Source: an uncultured delta proteobacterium (GTDB taxonomy: Bacteria > Myxococcota > Myxococcia > Myxococcales > Anaeromyxobacteraceae). Taken from it: 64,000 bases of DNA. Location: assembly GCA_963828255.1 (NCBI GenBank), contig CAWHDZ010000015.1, positions 64,001-128,000 on the forward strand, written 5' to 3'. How positions within the stretch are numbered: the first letter of the stretch is position 1; every line of letters begins with the position of its first letter. The notes under the pieces were generated by a model that was not told the DNA's origin, did not search any database, and saw only the letters and a program-made list of their open reading frames with translations. This document shows positions 1 to 6,980 of the stretch, in pieces. The position numbers and the translations under genes were made by a program.

Positions 1-2702
1 GCGCCTGCACCCACGGTCGTGCCGGGGGCCACGCCGGCACGTGTCCCGATCCTGCAGCGGCTCTCCAGGCGGACGGGACCGACGTGCAGATGCGGCCCCG
101 ACCACCTCGTCGCCTGGACGTAGGCCCCGGTCGAGATGGAGACGTCGTCCCCCATGGAGATCAGGTCCAGGGGACCGGAGAGGGAGGCGTCGTGCGCGCA
201 CTGGACGTTCCGCCCCACCGTCGCGCCGAGCCGCCGCAGCACGTAGGAGAGAAGGGGCGCGCTGCGGTACATCGTGCCCAGCGACTGGAGGACCGTGCGC
301 TCCATCCGGCCGATGCACCAGACCTTCAGGTGCATCCGGCTCCACTTGCGGTAGATGCCCGGGGCCACGCGGGTCCCGAGAAGGACCTTCCCGAGCAGGC
401 GCTTGAGCGCCAGGACCCAGAGCAGGGCGGCGAAGGGCGCGGCGAGCCCCACCATGTACAGGAAGGCCCCGAAGGCGAGGTACTCCTGAAGGTTGGCGGT
501 CGCGAAGAAGGCGCCGGCGTCGATGAGGCCCAAGGAGACGAAGGCGACCGCCAGCGCCGGCGCGTACAGGACCAGCGCGAAGAGGACTTGCAGCGCGGTG
601 AAGGCCCCCACGGACAGCACCGGGTCGCTCTCGGGGGCGATGCGGCTCTCGTCGGACCTCACGGGCGGTGACGAAGCCTCCGGCGCAGGCCGGGGAGCCC
701 GCGGGCGGCTGGCCACCTTCCTTGCCGTGTCGCAGTCCCCGAGGAGATCCCGGACCTGCACCGCCCATCCCGCGGCCTGGAGGCGCTGCGTCAGCCGCGC
801 CATGGTGATCGAGTCGCCGCCTGCCCGGGCGAAGCCGTCGTCCGGCCCCAGAGGACCCGGGAAGACGGCCCTGCAGATGGTCAGGGCCTCCTCGCACGCG
901 GGGGCCAGGCCGGCATCGGCGTCCCGCGGCCGGGCCGGACCGCCCTCCTGATCCGGCGCGCGTTCCGGGGATTCCGTGCCGGCGCCGGCCGCCTCCGATC
1001 CCGCCTCGCCCGGGGGACGAGGGAGTCTCGGGAGGCGCCTGCGGTCGATCTTCCCCGAGGCCGGCTGCAGGAAGAACCCCTCCACGAGGAAGATCCGGGT
1101 CGGGACCGACGGCGCGGGAAGCTGGCGGGCGAGGGTCGCCGTCACCTGCGCCGCCCACTGGGCTGGGGCCTGAGCGACCGCCGGGGCCCCTCTATCTCGA
1201 ATCGACGGCGCGACGACGAAGGCGACGAGCGCGTCGCCCTGGGCGTCGACGACGGCGGCCTCGATCTCGCCGAACTGCGTCTGGAGGACGTCCTCGACCG
1301 CCTGCGCCTCGACGCGGTGGCCGCGCACCTTGAGCTGCGCGTCGATCCGGCCGAGGAAGTGCACGCGCTGCGTCCGGATGTCGATCCGGCAGCGATCGCC
1401 GGTCCGGTAGAGGCGGCCGAACCGGGGGTGGGTGATGAACTTCTCGGCGGTCATCTCGGGGAGGTTGCGGTACCCCCGCGCGACGTGCACGCCGCCGACG
1501 CAGAGCTCCCCCACCTCCCCGTGGGGCAGCGGGCGGAGACCGCCGACCTCGAGGACGACGTAGGTGACGTTGGGAAAGGGGGAGCCGATGGTGACGGGCT
1601 CCCCCGGACGCAGGCTCTGACGGCTCGTGTCGGTGCTCGCCTCGGTGGGGCCGTAGGTGTTGATGATCTGCCGCCGTCCCCGGGTCCACGGCTCCACGAG
1701 CGCGCTGGGGAAGGCCTCACCGGCGGGCACGACGTAGCGGCACAGCGGATAGGGCAGGTCCAGCTCGGGCGCCTGCGTGAGGGTGGTGAGGAGAACCGGC
1801 GGGCAGAAGAGCACCGTGACCTCCGCCTGGCGGAGGATGGGGAGGAGGTCCGGGCCGGACCGGACCTCCTCCTTGGTGAGCAGGACCACGGCGCAGCCCG
1901 ACACCCAGGCGCCGTACATCTCGGAGATGCTGCCGTCGTAGCCGAGGGACGAGGTGAGCGAGCTCGCGTCGAGGCCGGGGAGGAGATCGAAGTAGTCGGC
2001 GTAGGTGAGGGCCAGGTTCACGTAACCCGCGTGTGGACACTCGACGCCCTTGGGCATCCCGGTGGTCCCGCTCGTGTAGAAGATCGTCGCGAGGCGCTGC
2101 GCGGGGTCGTCCAGCCACGGCGGCGGCTCTCGCCGGCGCGGCTTCTCCGGGAGCCTGAGGACGTCGAGCGTCGGCAGGCCGCGGAAGCCGTCATGGCCCC
2201 GCGTGAGGACGACCACCGGCCGCGCGTCGTCGATCATGTGGCGGATCAGGGCGTCCGGCAGGGTCGTGTCGAGGAACACCACGGTGCCGCCGGCCTTGAG
2301 GATGCCGAGGTGAGAGGCCACGATCTGCCAGTTGTCCTGCGACATCGCGACGGCCACGACCTGGTCCGGGCCCGTGAGGTAGGGAGAGACGGCGCCGGCG
2401 ATCGCCTCCGCGCGCGCGTCGAGCTCGGCGAAGGTGAGGGAATCTCCGGTGTGCGGGATCTGCAGGGCCGGGAGATCCGGGAACCGCCTGGCGGAGCGGC
2501 TGAAGATCTCCGTGAGCCACCGGGCCCCGGCCTGGTGCGGCGCGTTCACGAGGTGGCGATCGCCGAAGACCTCGGTCAGGCCGTACGGGCAGGTGTCCTC
2601 CGGCCCGCGCGGTGCCCGGGCCGCCCGGAGATACAGCCGCCACGCGACGAAGGTCAGACCGACGAGGACCGCGAAGGCGGCTGTCACGAGGATGGCTGGC
2701 AC
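1..2702 (-). CDS. Pls/PosA-family membrane-bound single-module NRPS (poly-amino-acid synthetase-like): A domain, T domain, TM helices, left-handed beta-helix domain; 3' end runs off the window
   Basis: Absent from the ORF track (no stop in window). Manual translation from GTG at 2702 is open to base 1. Seen: hydrophobic N-terminus (VPAILVTAAFAVLVGLTFVAWRLY), A3 IFYTSGTTGMPKGV, A5 INTYGPTEA, A7 YRTGD, A8 GRIDAQLKVRGHRVE, A10 SGKIDR, T motif GGDS (Ser codon ~810-812), two TM segments, then PGIYRKWS..LKVW..YVLRRLGATVGRNV..DLISMGDDVSI..VGPVRLESRCRIG, typical of the Pls C-terminal region. Start codon approximate. Confidence 0.88.
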   Translation of the reverse strand, partial: MPAILVTAAFAVLVGLTFVAWRLYLRAARAPRGPEDTCPYGLTEVFGDRHLVNAPHQAGARWLTEIFSRSARRFPDLPALQIPHTGDSLTFAELDARAEAIAGAVSPYLTGPDQVVAVAMSQDNWQIVASHLGILKAGGTVVFLDTTLPDALIRHMIDDARPVVVLTRGHDGFRGLPTLDVLRLPEKPRRREPPPWLDDPAQRLATIFYTSGTTGMPKGVECPHAGYVNLALTYADYFDLLPGLDASSLTSSLGYDGSISEMYGAWVSGCAVVLLTKEEVRSGPDLLPILRQAEVTVLFCPPVLLTTLTQAPELDLPYPLCRYVVPAGEAFPSALVEPWTRGRRQIINTYGPTEASTDTSRQSLRPGEPVTIGSPFPNVTYVVLEVGGLRPLPHGEVGELCVGGVHVARGYRNLPEMTAEKFITHPRFGRLYRTGDRCRIDIRTQRVHFLGRIDAQLKVRGHRVEAQAVEDVLQTQFGEIEAAVVDAQGDALVAFVVAPSIRDRGAPAVAQAPAQWAAQVTATLARQLPAPSVPTRIFLVEGFFLQPASGKIDRRRLPRLPRPPGEAGSEAAGAGTESPERAPDQEGGPARPRDADAGLAPACEEALTICRAVFPGPLGPDDGFARAGGDSITMARLTQRLQAAGWAVQVRDLLGDCDTARKVASRPRAPRPAPEASSPPVRSDESRIAPESDPVLSVGAFTALQVLFALVLYAPALAVAFVSLGLIDAGAFFATANLQEYLAFGAFLYMVGLAAPFAALLWVLALKRLLGKVLLGTRVAPGIYRKWSRMHLKVWCIGRMERTVLQSLGTMYRSAPLLSYVLRRLGATVGRNVQCAHDASLSGPLDLISMGDDVSISTGAYVQATRWSGPHLHVGPVRLESRCRIGTRAGVAPGTTVGAG

Positions 2703-2742
2703 GATCCCGCCCCGGCGGCAGAGCTTGCCCGGAGCCTCCCCT

Positions 2743-3792
2743 CTAGTCGAAGTACCGCTGAAGCGTTCCGGCCCGGCGGACGTCGAGGGTGACGCAGTGG
2801 GGCCCGCCGCCCAGCATCTTGGCGTGCCGCAGCTTCACTGGGACGACGTCGAGCCCCTCCTTCTCCAGGAGCTTCCGCAGGGCGGTCTGGTCCCGATCGA
2901 CCATGACCACGTCCGGGCTGACGCTGAAGAGGTTCATGTCGATCCAGTCGCTGCCGATGCTCTTCGACAGGTAGTCGGCGTCGAATCGGTTCGTGTTCTC
3001 CATGGGCGGGCTGTAGATGACCTTCCACTGCTTCAGGACCCCGGGCAGGGTGTCGTCGCTGACGCGGGCCGGATTGCACAGGATCAGGCCGGGGCGCAGG
3101 GCCACGAAGGTCGAGTCGATGTGGCTCCCGTAGTACACGTCCTCGAGGAAGTGGACCCGGAACTCATCGCCGAGGATCGCCTGCAGCCAGCGGCCTCCCA
3201 GCTCGTTGCCCGTGGAGCTGACGAGGTAGATCAGGTCACGGCCGAGACGCAGGACGTTCGCCGCGTCGAACGCGGGCTCGTCGTTCCGGGGAGTGGGCTT
3301 CGCCAGGTCGACGTCGAAGAGCGAGTCGAGGAGCATGGGCCGGGGGGCGCTGAACCAGCGCGCGCCCGACCTCAGGTACTCCATCAGCAGCGCGCGATAG
3401 CTGAAGGTCTCCTGGGCGCGGCTCCGGATGACGTTGGGGGTCTCGATGATCCGATCGCCGATCACCAGCAGGATGTCGCGGGGGCAGTAGTTGTAGTAAC
3501 CCTGGGCCTCCCAGTGGACGGTGGAGAAGCGGGCCTCGTGCGGCCAGGTCTCCGGGCGCCGGACGGCGACCCCCAGGCCTCGCAGGATGCTGACGAACTC
3601 GTCCAGGTCCTCCGCCGTCTCCTCGACGATCCGCTGCGGGAACGGGCCGCGCGGAATCTCGGCCAGCGAGCGGTCGGGAAACTCGGCCAGCTGCGTGCTC
3701 GGGTCCGGCGTGGGAAACCGCGCGCCCACCGGGTTGCCGACGATGACCTCCTCCAGCGGATCCCACTCGTTGCAGCTCCAGACCCGTGACAT
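2743..3792 (-). CDS. Amidinotransferase, StrB1/inosamine-phosphate amidinotransferase-like
   Basis: Starts MSRVWSCNEWDPLEEVIVG at ATG 3792 with a GAGGAGG RBS. Motifs YCPRD, FDAAN (Asp), SHIDST (His), GGGPHC (Cys nucleophile), TLDVRR. 349 aa. Confidence 0.92.
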   Translation of the reverse strand: MSRVWSCNEWDPLEEVIVGNPVGARFPTPDPSTQLAEFPDRSLAEIPRGPFPQRIVEETAEDLDEFVSILRGLGVAVRRPETWPHEARFSTVHWEAQGYYNYCPRDILLVIGDRIIETPNVIRSRAQETFSYRALLMEYLRSGARWFSAPRPMLLDSLFDVDLAKPTPRNDEPAFDAANVLRLGRDLIYLVSSTGNELGGRWLQAILGDEFRVHFLEDVYYGSHIDSTFVALRPGLILCNPARVSDDTLPGVLKQWKVIYSPPMENTNRFDADYLSKSIGSDWIDMNLFSVSPDVVMVDRDQTALRKLLEKEGLDVVPVKLRHAKMLGGGPHCVTLDVRRAGTLQRYFD

Positions 3793-3850
3793 CGGTTGCC
3801 GCGCCTCCTCGCCCGCGATCCCGGAAGCTCCCCGCTCCGGGCGGGCCACT

Positions 3851-4576
3851 CTAGCACGCGCGGCCGGGACCGAAGCGCCGCCCCGGGGCCGCCTCGGGAC
3901 CCAGCGTTCGCAGCTCGACGGACGCGCCGGCAACCCGGGCCGCCAGCGCGGCCACGTGGCCCGGGGCGCTCAGGTCGATCAGGGTCCAGTCCGACGGGAG
4001 GGTGCCTCCGTCGAGGGTCGCGAGGATCGCTGCCTCGCGGCCCAGCGAAACGGTCAGCTCGGCGAGCGGTGCCGAGATCCCGATCCCCAGCGCCTTCAGC
4101 ACGGCCTCCTTCCGGGTCCACCCCCGCAGGAACGCCCCGGACTTGTCCACCGCCTCCGCGAGCTCGCGCCGCTCGGGCTGGGAGAAGACCCGCTCCGAGA
4201 GGCCCTCCCAGTCCGGCACCGGGGCCTCGCGCTCGGCGTCGATGCCGACGTCGAAGCCGGTGGCGACGGCGATCAGGGCGCGCCCGTGCGTGTGCGAAAC
4301 GCTGAAGCGGACGGCGGCATCGGCTGCGTCGATCTCGGGTTTCCCCCTCGGCCCGTAGCGGAAGCGAAGGTCTTCGGGGCGGGTGGCGAGCCGCTCTCCG
4401 AGGACGAGGCGGAGCGCCGCGCGGCAGGCGATGAACCGGTCGCGGTGCACGTCGCGCAGGAAGGTGCTCGCACGGCCCCGCTCGTCCGGCGAGAGCAGCC
4501 GCGCCAGCCGCGGGACGCGCTCGCGGAGGGACTCGAGATCGAGCTGCCACACGGTGACGCTGCGGTCGTGGATCAT
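3851..4576 (-). CDS. Sfp-type 4'-phosphopantetheinyl transferase
   Basis: Motifs GKP, FSVSHT, VGIDAE, WTRKEAVLKALGIG. Confidence 0.93.
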   Translation of the reverse strand: MIHDRSVTVWQLDLESLRERVPRLARLLSPDERGRASTFLRDVHRDRFIACRAALRLVLGERLATRPEDLRFRYGPRGKPEIDAADAAVRFSVSHTHGRALIAVATGFDVGIDAEREAPVPDWEGLSERVFSQPERRELAEAVDKSGAFLRGWTRKEAVLKALGIGISAPLAELTVSLGREAAILATLDGGTLPSDWTLIDLSAPGHVAALAARVAGASVELRTLGPEAAPGRRFGPGRAC

Positions 4577-4589
4577 GCCGCTTCCGGCG

Positions 4590-5588
4590 CTAGGAATCGA
4601 GCGGGGCGAAGAAGTCCGGCACCGGGACCGCCTCTCCGGCAGCGAGGGCGCGGTCGTACAGCCACTTTCCCACCGCCACGTCCAGGACGCCGAGGCCGAA
4701 CGGGGAGAAGACGACGGCCTTTCCGTGGTCGACGGCGCAGCGCCCCTCCAGGACGTCCGCCAGCGTCCCGGCGACGAAGGACCGTGAGCCGACCTGCTTC
4801 TCGGCGAGGTGCACCGAGGTCTCCGCGCGCATCACGTGGTCGACGTCGTCGACCACGTTGCAGGCCTTCAGGATGAGCTCCGGCGCCAGGTCGCGCAGGG
4901 AGAGGTGGAGCACGACCGGGCGATGGGCCAGGAACTGCGGGTCATGGATGTGCGGCGCCGGGGCGACCGTCGTCAGGAGCACCAGGTCCGCGCCCCGCGA
5001 GGCCGACGCGAGATCCGGCATCACCTCGACGGGTGCCTGCCCGCCGCCCAGTCGGCTGGCGAAGCGCCTCGCCGCGAGGGGGTCGAGGTCGTAGGCCCGG
5101 ACGTTCCCGAGGGTCCAGCCGGTTCCGAGAAGGAAGCGGAGGACGTACCGCGCGATGAGCCCGGTGCCGACGACGGCGAGGGTCCGGGCGTGGCGCCCCC
5201 CGGGCACGAGGTGCTCGGCCGCGAGCGCCGCGGACGCCGCCGTTCGCGCAGCCGAGAGGATCGATCCCTCCAGGCAGGCGATGGGGTAGCCGCTCTCGTC
5301 GTCGTTGAGGATCAGGACGGCGGAGGCGCGGGCGAGCCCGCGGGAGACGTTGTCGGGGTAGCTCGAGATCCACTTCATGCCCGACACCCGCCAGGGCGCT
5401 CCGAGGTGGGCCGGCAAGCCGATGATGCGGGCGCTGGGCCTCGCCGGGAAGCGCAGGAACACGCTGTGAGGCATCGAGGTCAGGCCGTGCGCGTGGGCGA
5501 GGTACGCGCGCTTCACCACGTCGACGCAGCCCGGGAGGTCCTCGTCGAGGAGGCGCGCGATCGTCGGTCCGGTGACGACGTGGAACAT
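4590..5588 (-). CDS. sbnB: 2,3-diaminopropionate biosynthesis protein SbnB (ornithine cyclodeaminase family)
   Basis: True start MFHVVTG at ATG 5588 overlaps the sbnA stop (TGATG). Motifs PHSVFLRFP, RIIGLPA, KWISSYPDN, SAARTAA, GTGLIA, HLSLRD, FSPFGLGVLD. Confidence 0.9.
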   Translation of the reverse strand: MFHVVTGPTIARLLDEDLPGCVDVVKRAYLAHAHGLTSMPHSVFLRFPARPSARIIGLPAHLGAPWRVSGMKWISSYPDNVSRGLARASAVLILNDDESGYPIACLEGSILSAARTAASAALAAEHLVPGGRHARTLAVVGTGLIARYVLRFLLGTGWTLGNVRAYDLDPLAARRFASRLGGGQAPVEVMPDLASASRGADLVLLTTVAPAPHIHDPQFLAHRPVVLHLSLRDLAPELILKACNVVDDVDHVMRAETSVHLAEKQVGSRSFVAGTLADVLEGRCAVDHGKAVVFSPFGLGVLDVAVGKWLYDRALAAGEAVPVPDFFAPLDS

Positions 5589-6619
5589 CAGGGCCTGCTG
5601 ACCGCCACGCGCAGCCTCGGCGATTCGTCGGCCGCCCGCGAGCCGGCGCCGGAGGCCGGGGACTCCCCGGGGGCCGACCCGAGGCGATCGAAGACGTTGT
5701 GGAGGTACCCGGCGCCGCCGTCGCAGCAGAGGAAGAGCACGCGGGGTCGCACCCTCGTCGTCTCGCCGGCGAAGTACCTCCGGATCGCGGCGTAGCAGCT
5801 CCCCGACGACCCGCCCACGAACAGGCCGTGCCGCTCGAGCAGCTCGTGGCATGCACCGATCGTTTCGGCCTCCGGCACGATCACGACGTCGTCGATGAGC
5901 GCGTGCTGCAGCAGGGCAGGGCGGATGCTCGAGCCCAGCCCCGGGATCCGACGCGGCTTGGGCGGATGCCCGAAGATGACGGAGCCCTCCGAGTCCACCG
6001 CGACGATCTTCACGCGCGGGTCGTGCTCCTTCAGGCGCCTGGAGACGCCGGCGATCGTCCCGGCGGTGCTCACCGCGACGAAGACGTAGTCGACGGACGG
6101 AAGGGCCTCGACGATCTCGCCGGCCGTCAGGCGGTAGTGCGCATCGATCGCATCGGTGTTGCCGTACTGGTTCGGCCAGTAGGCGCCGGGGATCTCCGCC
6201 AGGAGGGCGCGGACCATCTGCAGGCGCGACTTGAGGTAGCCGCCCGCGTCGTCCGGCTCGCTGACCTTGACCACCCGGGCGCACTGGGCCCCCAGGGACG
6301 CCTCGAGGAGCGGTGACGTGTTCGGGTCGATGACCGGGATGAAGTCGAGGTCCAGCATGGCGGCGAAGAGGGCCAAGGCGCGGCCGAAGTTCCCGGACGA
6401 GGATTCGACGAGGGTCGTCCCCGGACCGATCTCCCCCCGCTCGATGGCTCGCTTGAGGATCCAGAGCGCCGGCCTGTCCTTCAGGCTGCCGAGCCCGTTC
6501 AGGAACTCGAGCTTGGCGAACAGGTCGAGGCGGTCGTCGGCGACTCGCACGACCGGTGTTGGCCGGAGCATCCGCTCCAGCATCGCGACCCGGTCGAGGA
6601 GGCGGCCCTTTCGGGTCAT
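5588..6619 (-). CDS. sbnA: 2,3-diaminopropionate biosynthesis protein SbnA (PLP-dependent, cysteine synthase fold)
   Basis: GSLKDR (PLP Lys), ESSSGNFG, GGYLKSRL, YWPNQY, AVSTAGT, RRIPGLG. Translationally coupled to sbnB. AGGAGGAG RBS. Confidence 0.9.
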   Translation of the reverse strand: MTRKGRLLDRVAMLERMLRPTPVVRVADDRLDLFAKLEFLNGLGSLKDRPALWILKRAIERGEIGPGTTLVESSSGNFGRALALFAAMLDLDFIPVIDPNTSPLLEASLGAQCARVVKVSEPDDAGGYLKSRLQMVRALLAEIPGAYWPNQYGNTDAIDAHYRLTAGEIVEALPSVDYVFVAVSTAGTIAGVSRRLKEHDPRVKIVAVDSEGSVIFGHPPKPRRIPGLGSSIRPALLQHALIDDVVIVPEAETIGACHELLERHGLFVGGSSGSCYAAIRRYFAGETTRVRPRVLFLCCDGGAGYLHNVFDRLGSAPGESPASGAGSRAADESPRLRVAVSRP

Positions 6620-6632
6620 TGCGAGACTCCTC

Positions 6633-6980
6633 CTACTGCGGCGCGGGAACCACGACGTAGTAGGGCCCGAAATCGCTCCCCTTCAACCAGTTCGGCCCGC
6701 AAACCTGGAAAGGCTCCCCCTTGACGGACACCGAGGTGCAGCCCGATGGGAGCTCGCTCAGCTGCGTGTTCATCGGGAGCTTGGTGGTCAAGGGGGCCGG
6801 AGGACGAGGGGGCGGCGGCGCGACGTAGACCGGCGGCGGAGCGTAGTAGACGGGCGGCGGCGCGTAGTAGACGGGGCGCGGGGCGTAGTAGACAGGGGCG
6901 CGGACGACGACCCACGCCGCGGTGGGGCGCGGCAGGGCCACGACCAGGGTGACGGCGAGGGCGAGGAGGCTGGCGCGCAT
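6633..6980 (-). CDS. Small exported proline/tyrosine-rich protein
   Basis: Signal peptide, repeated (P)VYYAPPP units, C-terminal two-Cys domain ending YVVVPAPQ. Confidence 0.75.
   Translation of the reverse strand: MRASLLALAVTLVVALPRPTAAWVVVRAPVYYAPRPVYYAPPPVYYAPPPVYVAPPPPRPPAPLTTKLPMNTQLSELPSGCTSVSVKGEPFQVCGPNWLKGSDFGPYYVVVPAPQ

Follow-up and report, generated by a model that had tools for sequence, protein, structure and literature searches.

The window analysed here, 64,000 nucleotides from a genome of the Anaeromyxobacteraceae (C15:64001-128000, where C15 coordinates follow the numbering of contig CAWHDZ010000015.1), carries at its left edge a cluster of genes for the supply of L-2,3-diaminopropionate (Dap), for an amidinotransferase and for a synthetase related to Pls, the enzyme that makes epsilon-poly-Lys. 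On the basis of sequence comparisons, we propose that the likely product of this cluster is a polyarginine-like polyamide, a short chain derived from diaminopropionate and bearing guanidinium groups. A ribosomal protein L14 cluster at 90% identity includes a member with the name Anaeromyxobacteraceae, in agreement with the Anaeromyxobacter-like host of the original prediction. The cluster is real and widespread, is apparently undescribed, and seems to work like a Pls system, but it fails two marks of membership in that family. Papers are cited below by their PMC numbers.

The gene cluster and its core enzymes

All five genes named in the original prediction, which was confined to the window, are intact and lie on the minus strand in the order sbnA-sbnB-PPTase-amidinotransferase-synthetase (PPTase, phosphopantetheinyl transferase). 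Their description as co-oriented and closely spaced is borne out by the coordinates and by profile searches: sbnA and sbnB overlap in TGATG, and the gaps sbnB-PPTase, PPTase-amidinotransferase and amidinotransferase-synthetase are 13, 58 and 40 nt. Two genes to the left of the window were missed in that prediction, one for a TraX/Acyl_transf_3 (TraX/AT3) protein, which overlaps the stop codon of the synthetase (ATGA), and one for an M13 peptidase. Each core gene is single-copy in the host genome. The features are:

5588..6619, minus strand: sbnA-family pyridoxal phosphate enzyme, 343 aa, first step of Dap supply (TIGR03945, 376.8 bits; cut-off 349.95)
4590..5588, minus strand: sbnB-family dehydrogenase, 332 aa, second step of Dap supply (TIGR03944, 389.8 bits; cut-off 326.9)
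3851..4576, minus strand: Sfp/HetI-type phosphopantetheinyl transferase, for the T domain, 241 aa (PF01648, E 6e-17)
2743..3792, minus strand: amidinotransferase, 349 aa from the ATG at 3792, StrB1-like fold (PDB 1bwd, E 6.6e-106)
1..2702, minus strand: Pls-like synthetase, first 900 of 1439 aa inside the window (whole gene C15:66702-62383)
C15:62386-61556, left of the window: TraX/Acyl_transf_3 gene, 276 aa (PF01757, PF05857)
C15:61528-59504, left of the window: secreted M13 peptidase, 27 nt beyond the TraX gene
6633..6980, minus strand: secreted Pro/Tyr-rich protein, 115 aa, 13 nt upstream of sbnA

The reading frame of the synthetase is unbroken and extends 1617 bases past the left edge of the window to a length of 1439 aa. 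It encodes an N-terminal membrane anchor (residues 1-25), an A domain (~65-560), a T domain (Ser631) and, three times over, a pair of membrane helices with a left-handed beta-helix; there is no C (condensation) or TE (thioesterase) domain. The architecture predicted earlier from the visible part alone holds for the full-length protein. In the hydropathy profile, the anchor is a hydrophobic stretch with basic residues directly after it, and three hydrophobic helix pairs follow downstream. A structural model built from a 79-row alignment (pLDDT 89, pTM 0.89), which superseded an earlier shallow-alignment model that was poor in repeats 2-3 (pLDDT 64.6), contains three repeats of two long helices and a beta-helix. 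A truncated or non-Pls C-terminus, one of the outcomes considered in the original prediction, is ruled out by this model and by the 1439-aa frame. PosA, the delta-poly-Orn synthetase, has been modelled with the same architecture, i.e. six membrane helices in three pairs and three left-handed beta-helices (PMC10522769). A Foldseek search with the C-terminal model found left-handed beta-helix (LbH) hexapeptide O- and N-acetyltransferases/acyltransferases, while a sequence search of the PDB with the C-terminus returned no match.

Assignment to the Pls family by the model TIGR02353 was upheld only in part: almost the whole model is covered (positions 22-695) and the three repeats are present, but the score of 176.1 bits lies far below the cut-off of 423.1. 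A profile of the subfamily, searched against 1.84 billion representatives, gave 601-1184 bits for full-length members and 185 bits for the best full-length outsider, and in an A-domain tree of 39 rows (midpoint-rooted only) the ten rows from the subfamily make up a clade with 100/100 support and a long stem. By these sequence criteria the synthetase is an isolated subfamily of Pls. Judged by A-domain identity (42-48%), the Pls group closest to the synthetase is one with a DSECYGGVT-type specificity code. We observed that a large Pls group with the code DSE-x-YGGVT (P0341, P0333, P0335 and ~17 further representatives) matches an Arg-activating enzyme of Bdellovibrionales. The nearest outside A domain on the tree belongs to P0322, a protein of 1979 aa from the dinoflagellate parasite Amoebophrya, with the code DSDFYGGID (Asp at position 9) and a beta-helix C-terminus. 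Two myxococcotal proteins (L174, L175) have another divergent three-repeat Pls-like domain; one of them is a fusion in which an oxidase-like region and a carrier domain, in place of an A domain, precede the Pls-like part.

In the C-terminal domain, comparison of 37 subfamily rows with 38 canonical Pls rows revealed 43 positions common to both, while 30 canonical positions are altered. E1085, N1136, Q1354, H1356, E1359 and K1402, which are invariant in the 38 canonical rows, are kept in the synthetase of the window, and the kept residues, these among them, probably include catalytic ones. The canonical R1187, R1215, R1287, R1361, D1339 and D1360 are lost; in the motif Q-x-H-x-F-E-D-R, the Q, H and E are retained and D-R is replaced by N-M. 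The loss of these Arg and Asp residues would fit a changed acceptor.

The A-domain code, read by motif position, is DGSFVATTDK. Among 121 proteins surveyed, 111 had an A-domain match (the window protein being counted twice), with the codes DGSFVATTD in 90, DGPFVAT(S/C)D in 18 and others in 3. Asp occupies position 9 in all 111 homologues; position 3 is Ser or Pro, never Glu, in all 110 that are readable. Cationic homopoly(amino acid) synthetases are said to share, without exception, a conserved Glu at position 3 (PMC10522769; PMC12042044). Position 2 is reported to shrink from Phe (for Dap and 2,4-diaminobutyrate, Dab) through Met to Ala as the substrate lengthens, and is Phe in the poly-Dap (PDAP) synthetases (PMC10522769), where the window synthetase has Gly. 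In SulM, the beta-amine of Dap is held by Asp8 together with Asp9, and none of the three binding modes for diamino acids defined in the same paper uses Asp9 alone (PMC12042044). A tested member of the DSECYGGVT type activates Arg and not diamino acids (PMC10522769). The retention of Asp1 in the DGSFVATTDK code indicates that the substrate is an alpha-amino acid, and, to judge from Gly2, Ser3, Phe4 and Asp9, the pocket seems spacious and suited to a cationic side chain that is short but bigger than that of Dap.

The amidinotransferase has no match in Pfam or NCBIfam, and its best PDB match is StrB1 (1bwd). Aligned to StrB1, AGAT and SxtG, its Asp/His/Cys triad (positions taken from PMC3684758) is intact. 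It belongs to a tight clade of its own, with 74-82% identity within it and 57-65% to the nearest outsiders; the enzymes of clusters in other phyla are 66-82% identical to it. A flap Y-G-S-H is present, in the form Y/F-G-S-H in 113 of 120 homologues; it resembles Phe245/Ser247 of CyrA, whose acceptor is an alpha-amine (glycine) (PMC3684758). Amidinotransferase and TraX genes were found inverted, as a divergent unit upstream of the synthetase, in L113, L129, L130, L131 and L144, three of which still have a short piece of the former amidinotransferase copy. Outside the clade, the most similar amidinotransferase (64.5% identical) is encoded on the Robbsia andropogonis plasmid NZ_CP139167.1 (L308:3696-13041), among transposases and near genes for a Dab aminotransferase, a PGM1-related peptide ligase and an aldehyde dehydrogenase. 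A streptidine-type pathway was considered and rejected, as no aminocyclitol genes occur among the recurrent neighbour families of 102 loci.

Distribution, linkage and neighbouring genes

Searches with the synthetase's C-terminal domain found 820 proteins at E 1e-30 among 8000 candidates scored; identities range over 63-100% in the 120 listed. At least 12 subfamily loci are present among the 80 genome loci listed, from Acidobacteriota, Alpha- and Gammaproteobacteria, Desulfobacterota and Verrucomicrobiota. Linkage was assessed in 92 loci (12 from genomes and 80 from metagenomes), each taken from the matches listed. An amidinotransferase match was found in 37 of the 37 loci with at least 2.5 kb upstream, one of the matches being no more than a remnant. 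Of the 25 loci with at least 5 kb upstream, 15 have SbnA and 16 SbnB, and of the 51 with at least 2 kb downstream, 38 have TraX and 32 a PPTase. For dereplication, 98 loci were clustered at 90% identity, which gave 47 groups, each represented by the locus with the best flanks; a full amidinotransferase was present in 26/26 groups and SbnB in 16/22. In the reverse direction, the amidinotransferase was searched in ~1200 genomes: homologues of at least 74% identity occurred in 11 others, two of them search centres, and 8 of the nine remaining genomes hold the synthetase, the ninth gene lying at a contig end beside sbnB. No synthetase was found within 1.5 kb of amidinotransferases at 57% identity or less (0/52 loci). 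The co-occurrence named for checking in the original prediction stands in both directions for the amidinotransferase and the synthetase (26/26; 8/9 vs 0/52), and less completely for SbnB, which is absent from 6 of 22 groups. The cluster is conserved across phyla, far beyond a chance arrangement.

It is not a characteristically myxobacterial system. Relatives occur in five other phyla, mostly in Acidobacteriota and Alphaproteobacteria, and among 401 Myxococcota genomes searched, the amidinotransferase clade is present in that of the window alone; the best amidinotransferase in the 400 others is 49% identical. In 13 genomes of the same genus, a stricter, initial screen at E 1e-50 found no match to the synthetase. 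Chance clustering and a myxobacterial speciality were both rejected. A search for the synthetase C-terminus on plasmids gave no match. Contigs from RNA libraries contained short fragments of relatives only, in three sediment runs from two studies, which is not proof of transcription.

Enzymes of the SbnA and SbnB families are known to make L-Dap. The SbnA and SbnB of the window are only ~40% and ~48% identical to the main cluster type, compared with ~79% for the amidinotransferase and ~70% for the synthetase, and the cluster SbnBs fall into four deep lineages, whereas the cluster amidinotransferases are shallow; this discrepancy suggests that the Dap genes were recruited repeatedly. Dab as an alternative acceptor in genomes without sbnAB was rejected, as neither EctB nor Dat was found over the cut-off in any of the five examined (5/5).

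The accessory genes are more variable. The window PPTase scores below the cut-off of NF042922, and other clusters carry PPTases from two other lineages. The TraX/AT3 protein matches PF01757 (44.1 bits, cut-off 31) and PF05857 (26.9, cut-off 25), its Atlas neighbours are TraX clusters, and a PDB sequence search with the TraX profile gave no match. It has an N-terminal Asp...His motif (D15, K18 and H29 are invariant in 16 rows), the histidine of which we take to be catalytic, as in AT3 proteins. In 12 of the 120 homologues listed the TraX domain is fused to the synthetase. TraX (51 loci) and DUF418 (6 loci) are mutually exclusive; DUF418, of the AT3 clan, lies beside the synthetase, always without TraX, in L021 (14147-15358), L093 (2945-4207), L094, L170, L272 and L280 (4986-6257), and in L093 it sits where sbnA and sbnB were lost. 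DUF418 may be a substitute acyltransferase or a transporter. The 18 groups flanked on both sides contain PPTase in 15, TraX in 11, DUF418 in 3 and a peptidase in 13, the latter being S41 in 11, DUF4344 in 2 and M13 in 1 (one group has two). An S41/Tricorn-C1 peptidase without a signal peptide was seen in 28 loci (e.g. L012:8935-9957), in varying position and orientation; other loci have DUF4344 metallopeptidases or M13, and the window genome has no S41 of that type. A secreted protein of ~130 aa with no Pfam match lies near the cluster in 12 of 102 loci (e.g. L161:14378-14767). The 115-aa Pro/Tyr-rich protein of the window is likely co-transcribed with the cluster but outside the conserved set; elsewhere it adjoins the cluster only in the near-identical locus L092.

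The GC content of the cluster matches that of the genome (71.6% vs 71.4%) and does not indicate recent transfer. A search of the window cluster for informative repeats or attachment sites found none, no promoter-like site was found at the TraX end, and Rfam elements at the locus were limited to two tRNAs. The cluster is flanked by an AbiEii fragment and a helix-turn-helix (HTH) antitoxin-like gene on one side and by tRNA-Gln and tRNA-Glu on the other (window:8859-10119; L307:2645-2871). This island-like bracketing suggests horizontal acquisition, although the GC content matches the genome. Farther into the window lie ordinary neighbours: genes for a molybdate-binding protein, arsenic resistance, a cytochrome c552 nitrite reductase and a respiratory nitrate reductase operon (window:10264-27738), and a deoxyhypusine synthase-like gene (window:53761-54909).

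Proposed product and alternative readings

That the product contains amidinated Dap is, in our judgement, highly probable, and that it is an oligomer or polymer is fairly probable. We tentatively propose a more specific scheme, which may be correct but to which we would not give an even chance. SbnA and SbnB, assigned to their families by profile, would supply L-Dap. The amidinotransferase would then move an amidino group from Arg onto free Dap, most likely onto the beta-amine, giving 2-amino-3-guanidinopropionate (guanidino-alanine). This larger alpha-amino acid would be activated by the A domain via Asp9 in place of the canonical Glu3 and loaded on the PPTase-primed T domain, as the code suggests. 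In what is the weakest step, the three-beta-helix domain would hand over the residue, again and again, to an acceptor amine that is free; as the side chain is blocked, this would be the alpha-amine, and the chain would resemble polyarginine. Finally, by analogy, the TraX/AT3 protein may acylate or cap the product at the membrane and the peptidase may trim or detoxify it. Pathway amidinotransferases are reported to amidinate free precursors (PMC3684758, PMC4887976, PMC13232609). In Pls, the residue held by the T domain is transferred to an acceptor that is free (PMC8949500), and alcohols can be esterified by the enzyme as well (PMC9606270), which makes the acceptor the key question. With a score below the TIGR02353 cut-off and no Glu3, plain polymerisation of Dap through the side-chain amine should not be assumed. 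The scheme in its fullest form, i.e. a Pls-fold synthetase rewired to make an alpha-linked guanidino-alanine polymer, capped by a partly fused AT3 acyltransferase, lying below the cut-off of the standard Pls model and passed on by horizontal transfer among uncultured bacteria from soil and sediment that span six phyla or more, seems doubtful as a whole.

Several observations weigh against the alpha-linked guanidino-alanine chain and the pathway leading to it. Characterised Pls-type enzymes all link their residues via the side-chain amine, and alpha-linkage by a Pls fold has no precedent in the literature searched; three binding modes have been published for diamino acids, and the code DGSFVATTDK is an exact fit to none of them. 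An approximately unbiased (AU) test, run on 13 selected cluster rows against 8 myxobacterial outgroups, did not reject a single clade for the cluster SbnBs (p 0.241), SbnB is missing near 6 of the 22 dereplicated groups, and four genomes that carry both core genes, all of them incomplete, have neither SbnA nor SbnB nor a Dab aminotransferase over the cut-off. Among the 18 fully flanked groups, TraX and the peptidase are found in only 11 and 13. Some loci are decaying, with amidinotransferase remnants in L095 and L096 and frameshifts in L021 and L023.

The product could instead be beta-linked poly-Dap, made by the normal isopeptide logic of Pls and amidinated on its alpha-amines, either as free Dap or on the growing chain; it would still be a guanidinylated polyamide. 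PGM1-type peptide ligases use alpha-guanidino acids, and the presence of one next to the Robbsia amidinotransferase speaks for this version, as does the resemblance of the flap Y-G-S-H to Phe245/Ser247 of the alpha-amine enzyme CyrA (PMC3684758). It would also keep the sole linkage known for the Pls family (PMC10522769), and Asp9 binds plain Dap in SulM (PMC12042044). However, Gly/Ser stand here in the positions of Phe/Glu of the PDAP synthetases, a pocket that is large for bare Dap, and the polymerase domain is heavily remodelled, which a normal beta-Dap polymerase would not need; we consider this reading unlikely. The fold of the domain, which is that of O- and N-acyltransferases, raises another alternative, namely that there is no polymerase and that one amidino-Dap is moved to an acceptor (lipid, polyol or glycan) in the membrane or envelope, with the help of TraX/AT3, to change the surface charge. 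Pls itself esterifies alcohols (PMC9606270), a blocked side chain takes away the usual chain-extending amine, the synthetase has an additional N-terminal membrane anchor, and an AT3-clan protein (TraX or DUF418) lies beside the synthetase in 14 of 18 groups, all of which would agree with such a transfer. On the other hand, genes of lipid or glycan synthesis are not recurrent among the neighbours of the 102 loci, whereas peptidases are (S41, 28 loci) and recall the polymer-degrading Pld enzymes that polylysine producers carry for self-protection (PMC8506220); we regard this transfer as quite unlikely.

It would be more improbable still that the amidino acceptor is not, or not only, Dap, with SbnAB being optional and the core pair acting on a common amine or making a small N-acylated guanidino compound. 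The A code is identical with and without sbnAB (L021, L020), the core genes of L093 are intact, 93-94% identical to those of the window, beside an sbnB remnant and the DUF418 gene, and SbnAB was not detected in the four genomes mentioned above. These genomes are incomplete assemblies, though, and in most clusters, with Dap genes of four distinct lineages, SbnAB lie directly upstream of the amidinotransferase.

If the alpha-linked guanidino-alanine polymer or another guanidinylated Pls product were confirmed, it would be a natural polyarginine analogue, of interest as an antimicrobial or cell-penetrating polymer, and the Pls polymerase domain would be able to switch its linkage chemistry or acceptor. 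The literature searched names fewer than 10 bacterial homopoly(amino acid)s, and those made by Pls carry no tailoring group or guanidinium. The subfamily provides a natural substitution set around the conserved His and Glu in a domain without a solved structure, and in the cluster, TraX-like and DUF418 proteins have a testable setting other than conjugation. The entire pathway, six genes in ~9 kb, is directly expressible.

Comparison with known systems

In keeping with the original prediction, which knew of no such pathway, a description of the cluster is absent from the literature searched, although its code might stand among the unknowns in Supplementary Table 2 of PMC10522769. The full-text search, with most subscription papers and MIBiG outside its scope, found no amidinotransferase joined to a Pls-type enzyme or to SbnA/B. 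TAN-1057 contains a ring derived from amidino-Dap; a possible link to it was considered, and no biosynthetic paper stood among the matches listed.

The synthetase resembles Pls and PosA in its single A-T module without C or TE, in its three helix pairs and three beta-helices, and in part of the canonical C-terminal residues, the core Q-x-H-x-F-E among them. It differs from them in its score below the TIGR02353 cut-off, the lack of Glu3, the extra N-terminal anchor and the obligate amidinotransferase; moreover, posA is a single-gene operon (PMC10522769), unlike the cluster of the window. The poly-Dap pathway of Streptomyces albulus PD-1 (PDAPs, NjxA/NjxB; PMC4668381) likewise combines an SbnA/SbnB-type supply with a Pls-type synthetase. 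The accessible part of that paper reports no amidinotransferase, the PDAP synthetase has Phe/Glu at code positions 2/3 in place of Gly/Ser, and in the window the Dap-supply genes share one operon with the synthetase. The Bdellovibrionales Pls homologue (DSECYGGVTK; PMC10522769), a member of the nearest Pls group, activates a guanidino amino acid, Arg, but keeps Glu3 and the FEDR motif, unlike the synthetase of the window.

The amidinotransferase shares its fold and catalytic triad with StrB1, AmtA, CyrA, SxtG and GvgD; unlike StrB1, it belongs to its own clade and has no aminocyclitol genes nearby. Cyanophycin (multi-L-arginyl-poly-L-aspartate) is made by another class of enzyme, from Asp and Arg, with neither a carrier domain nor an amidinotransferase, but it too is a natural bacterial polymer with guanidinium side chains (PMC9606270).

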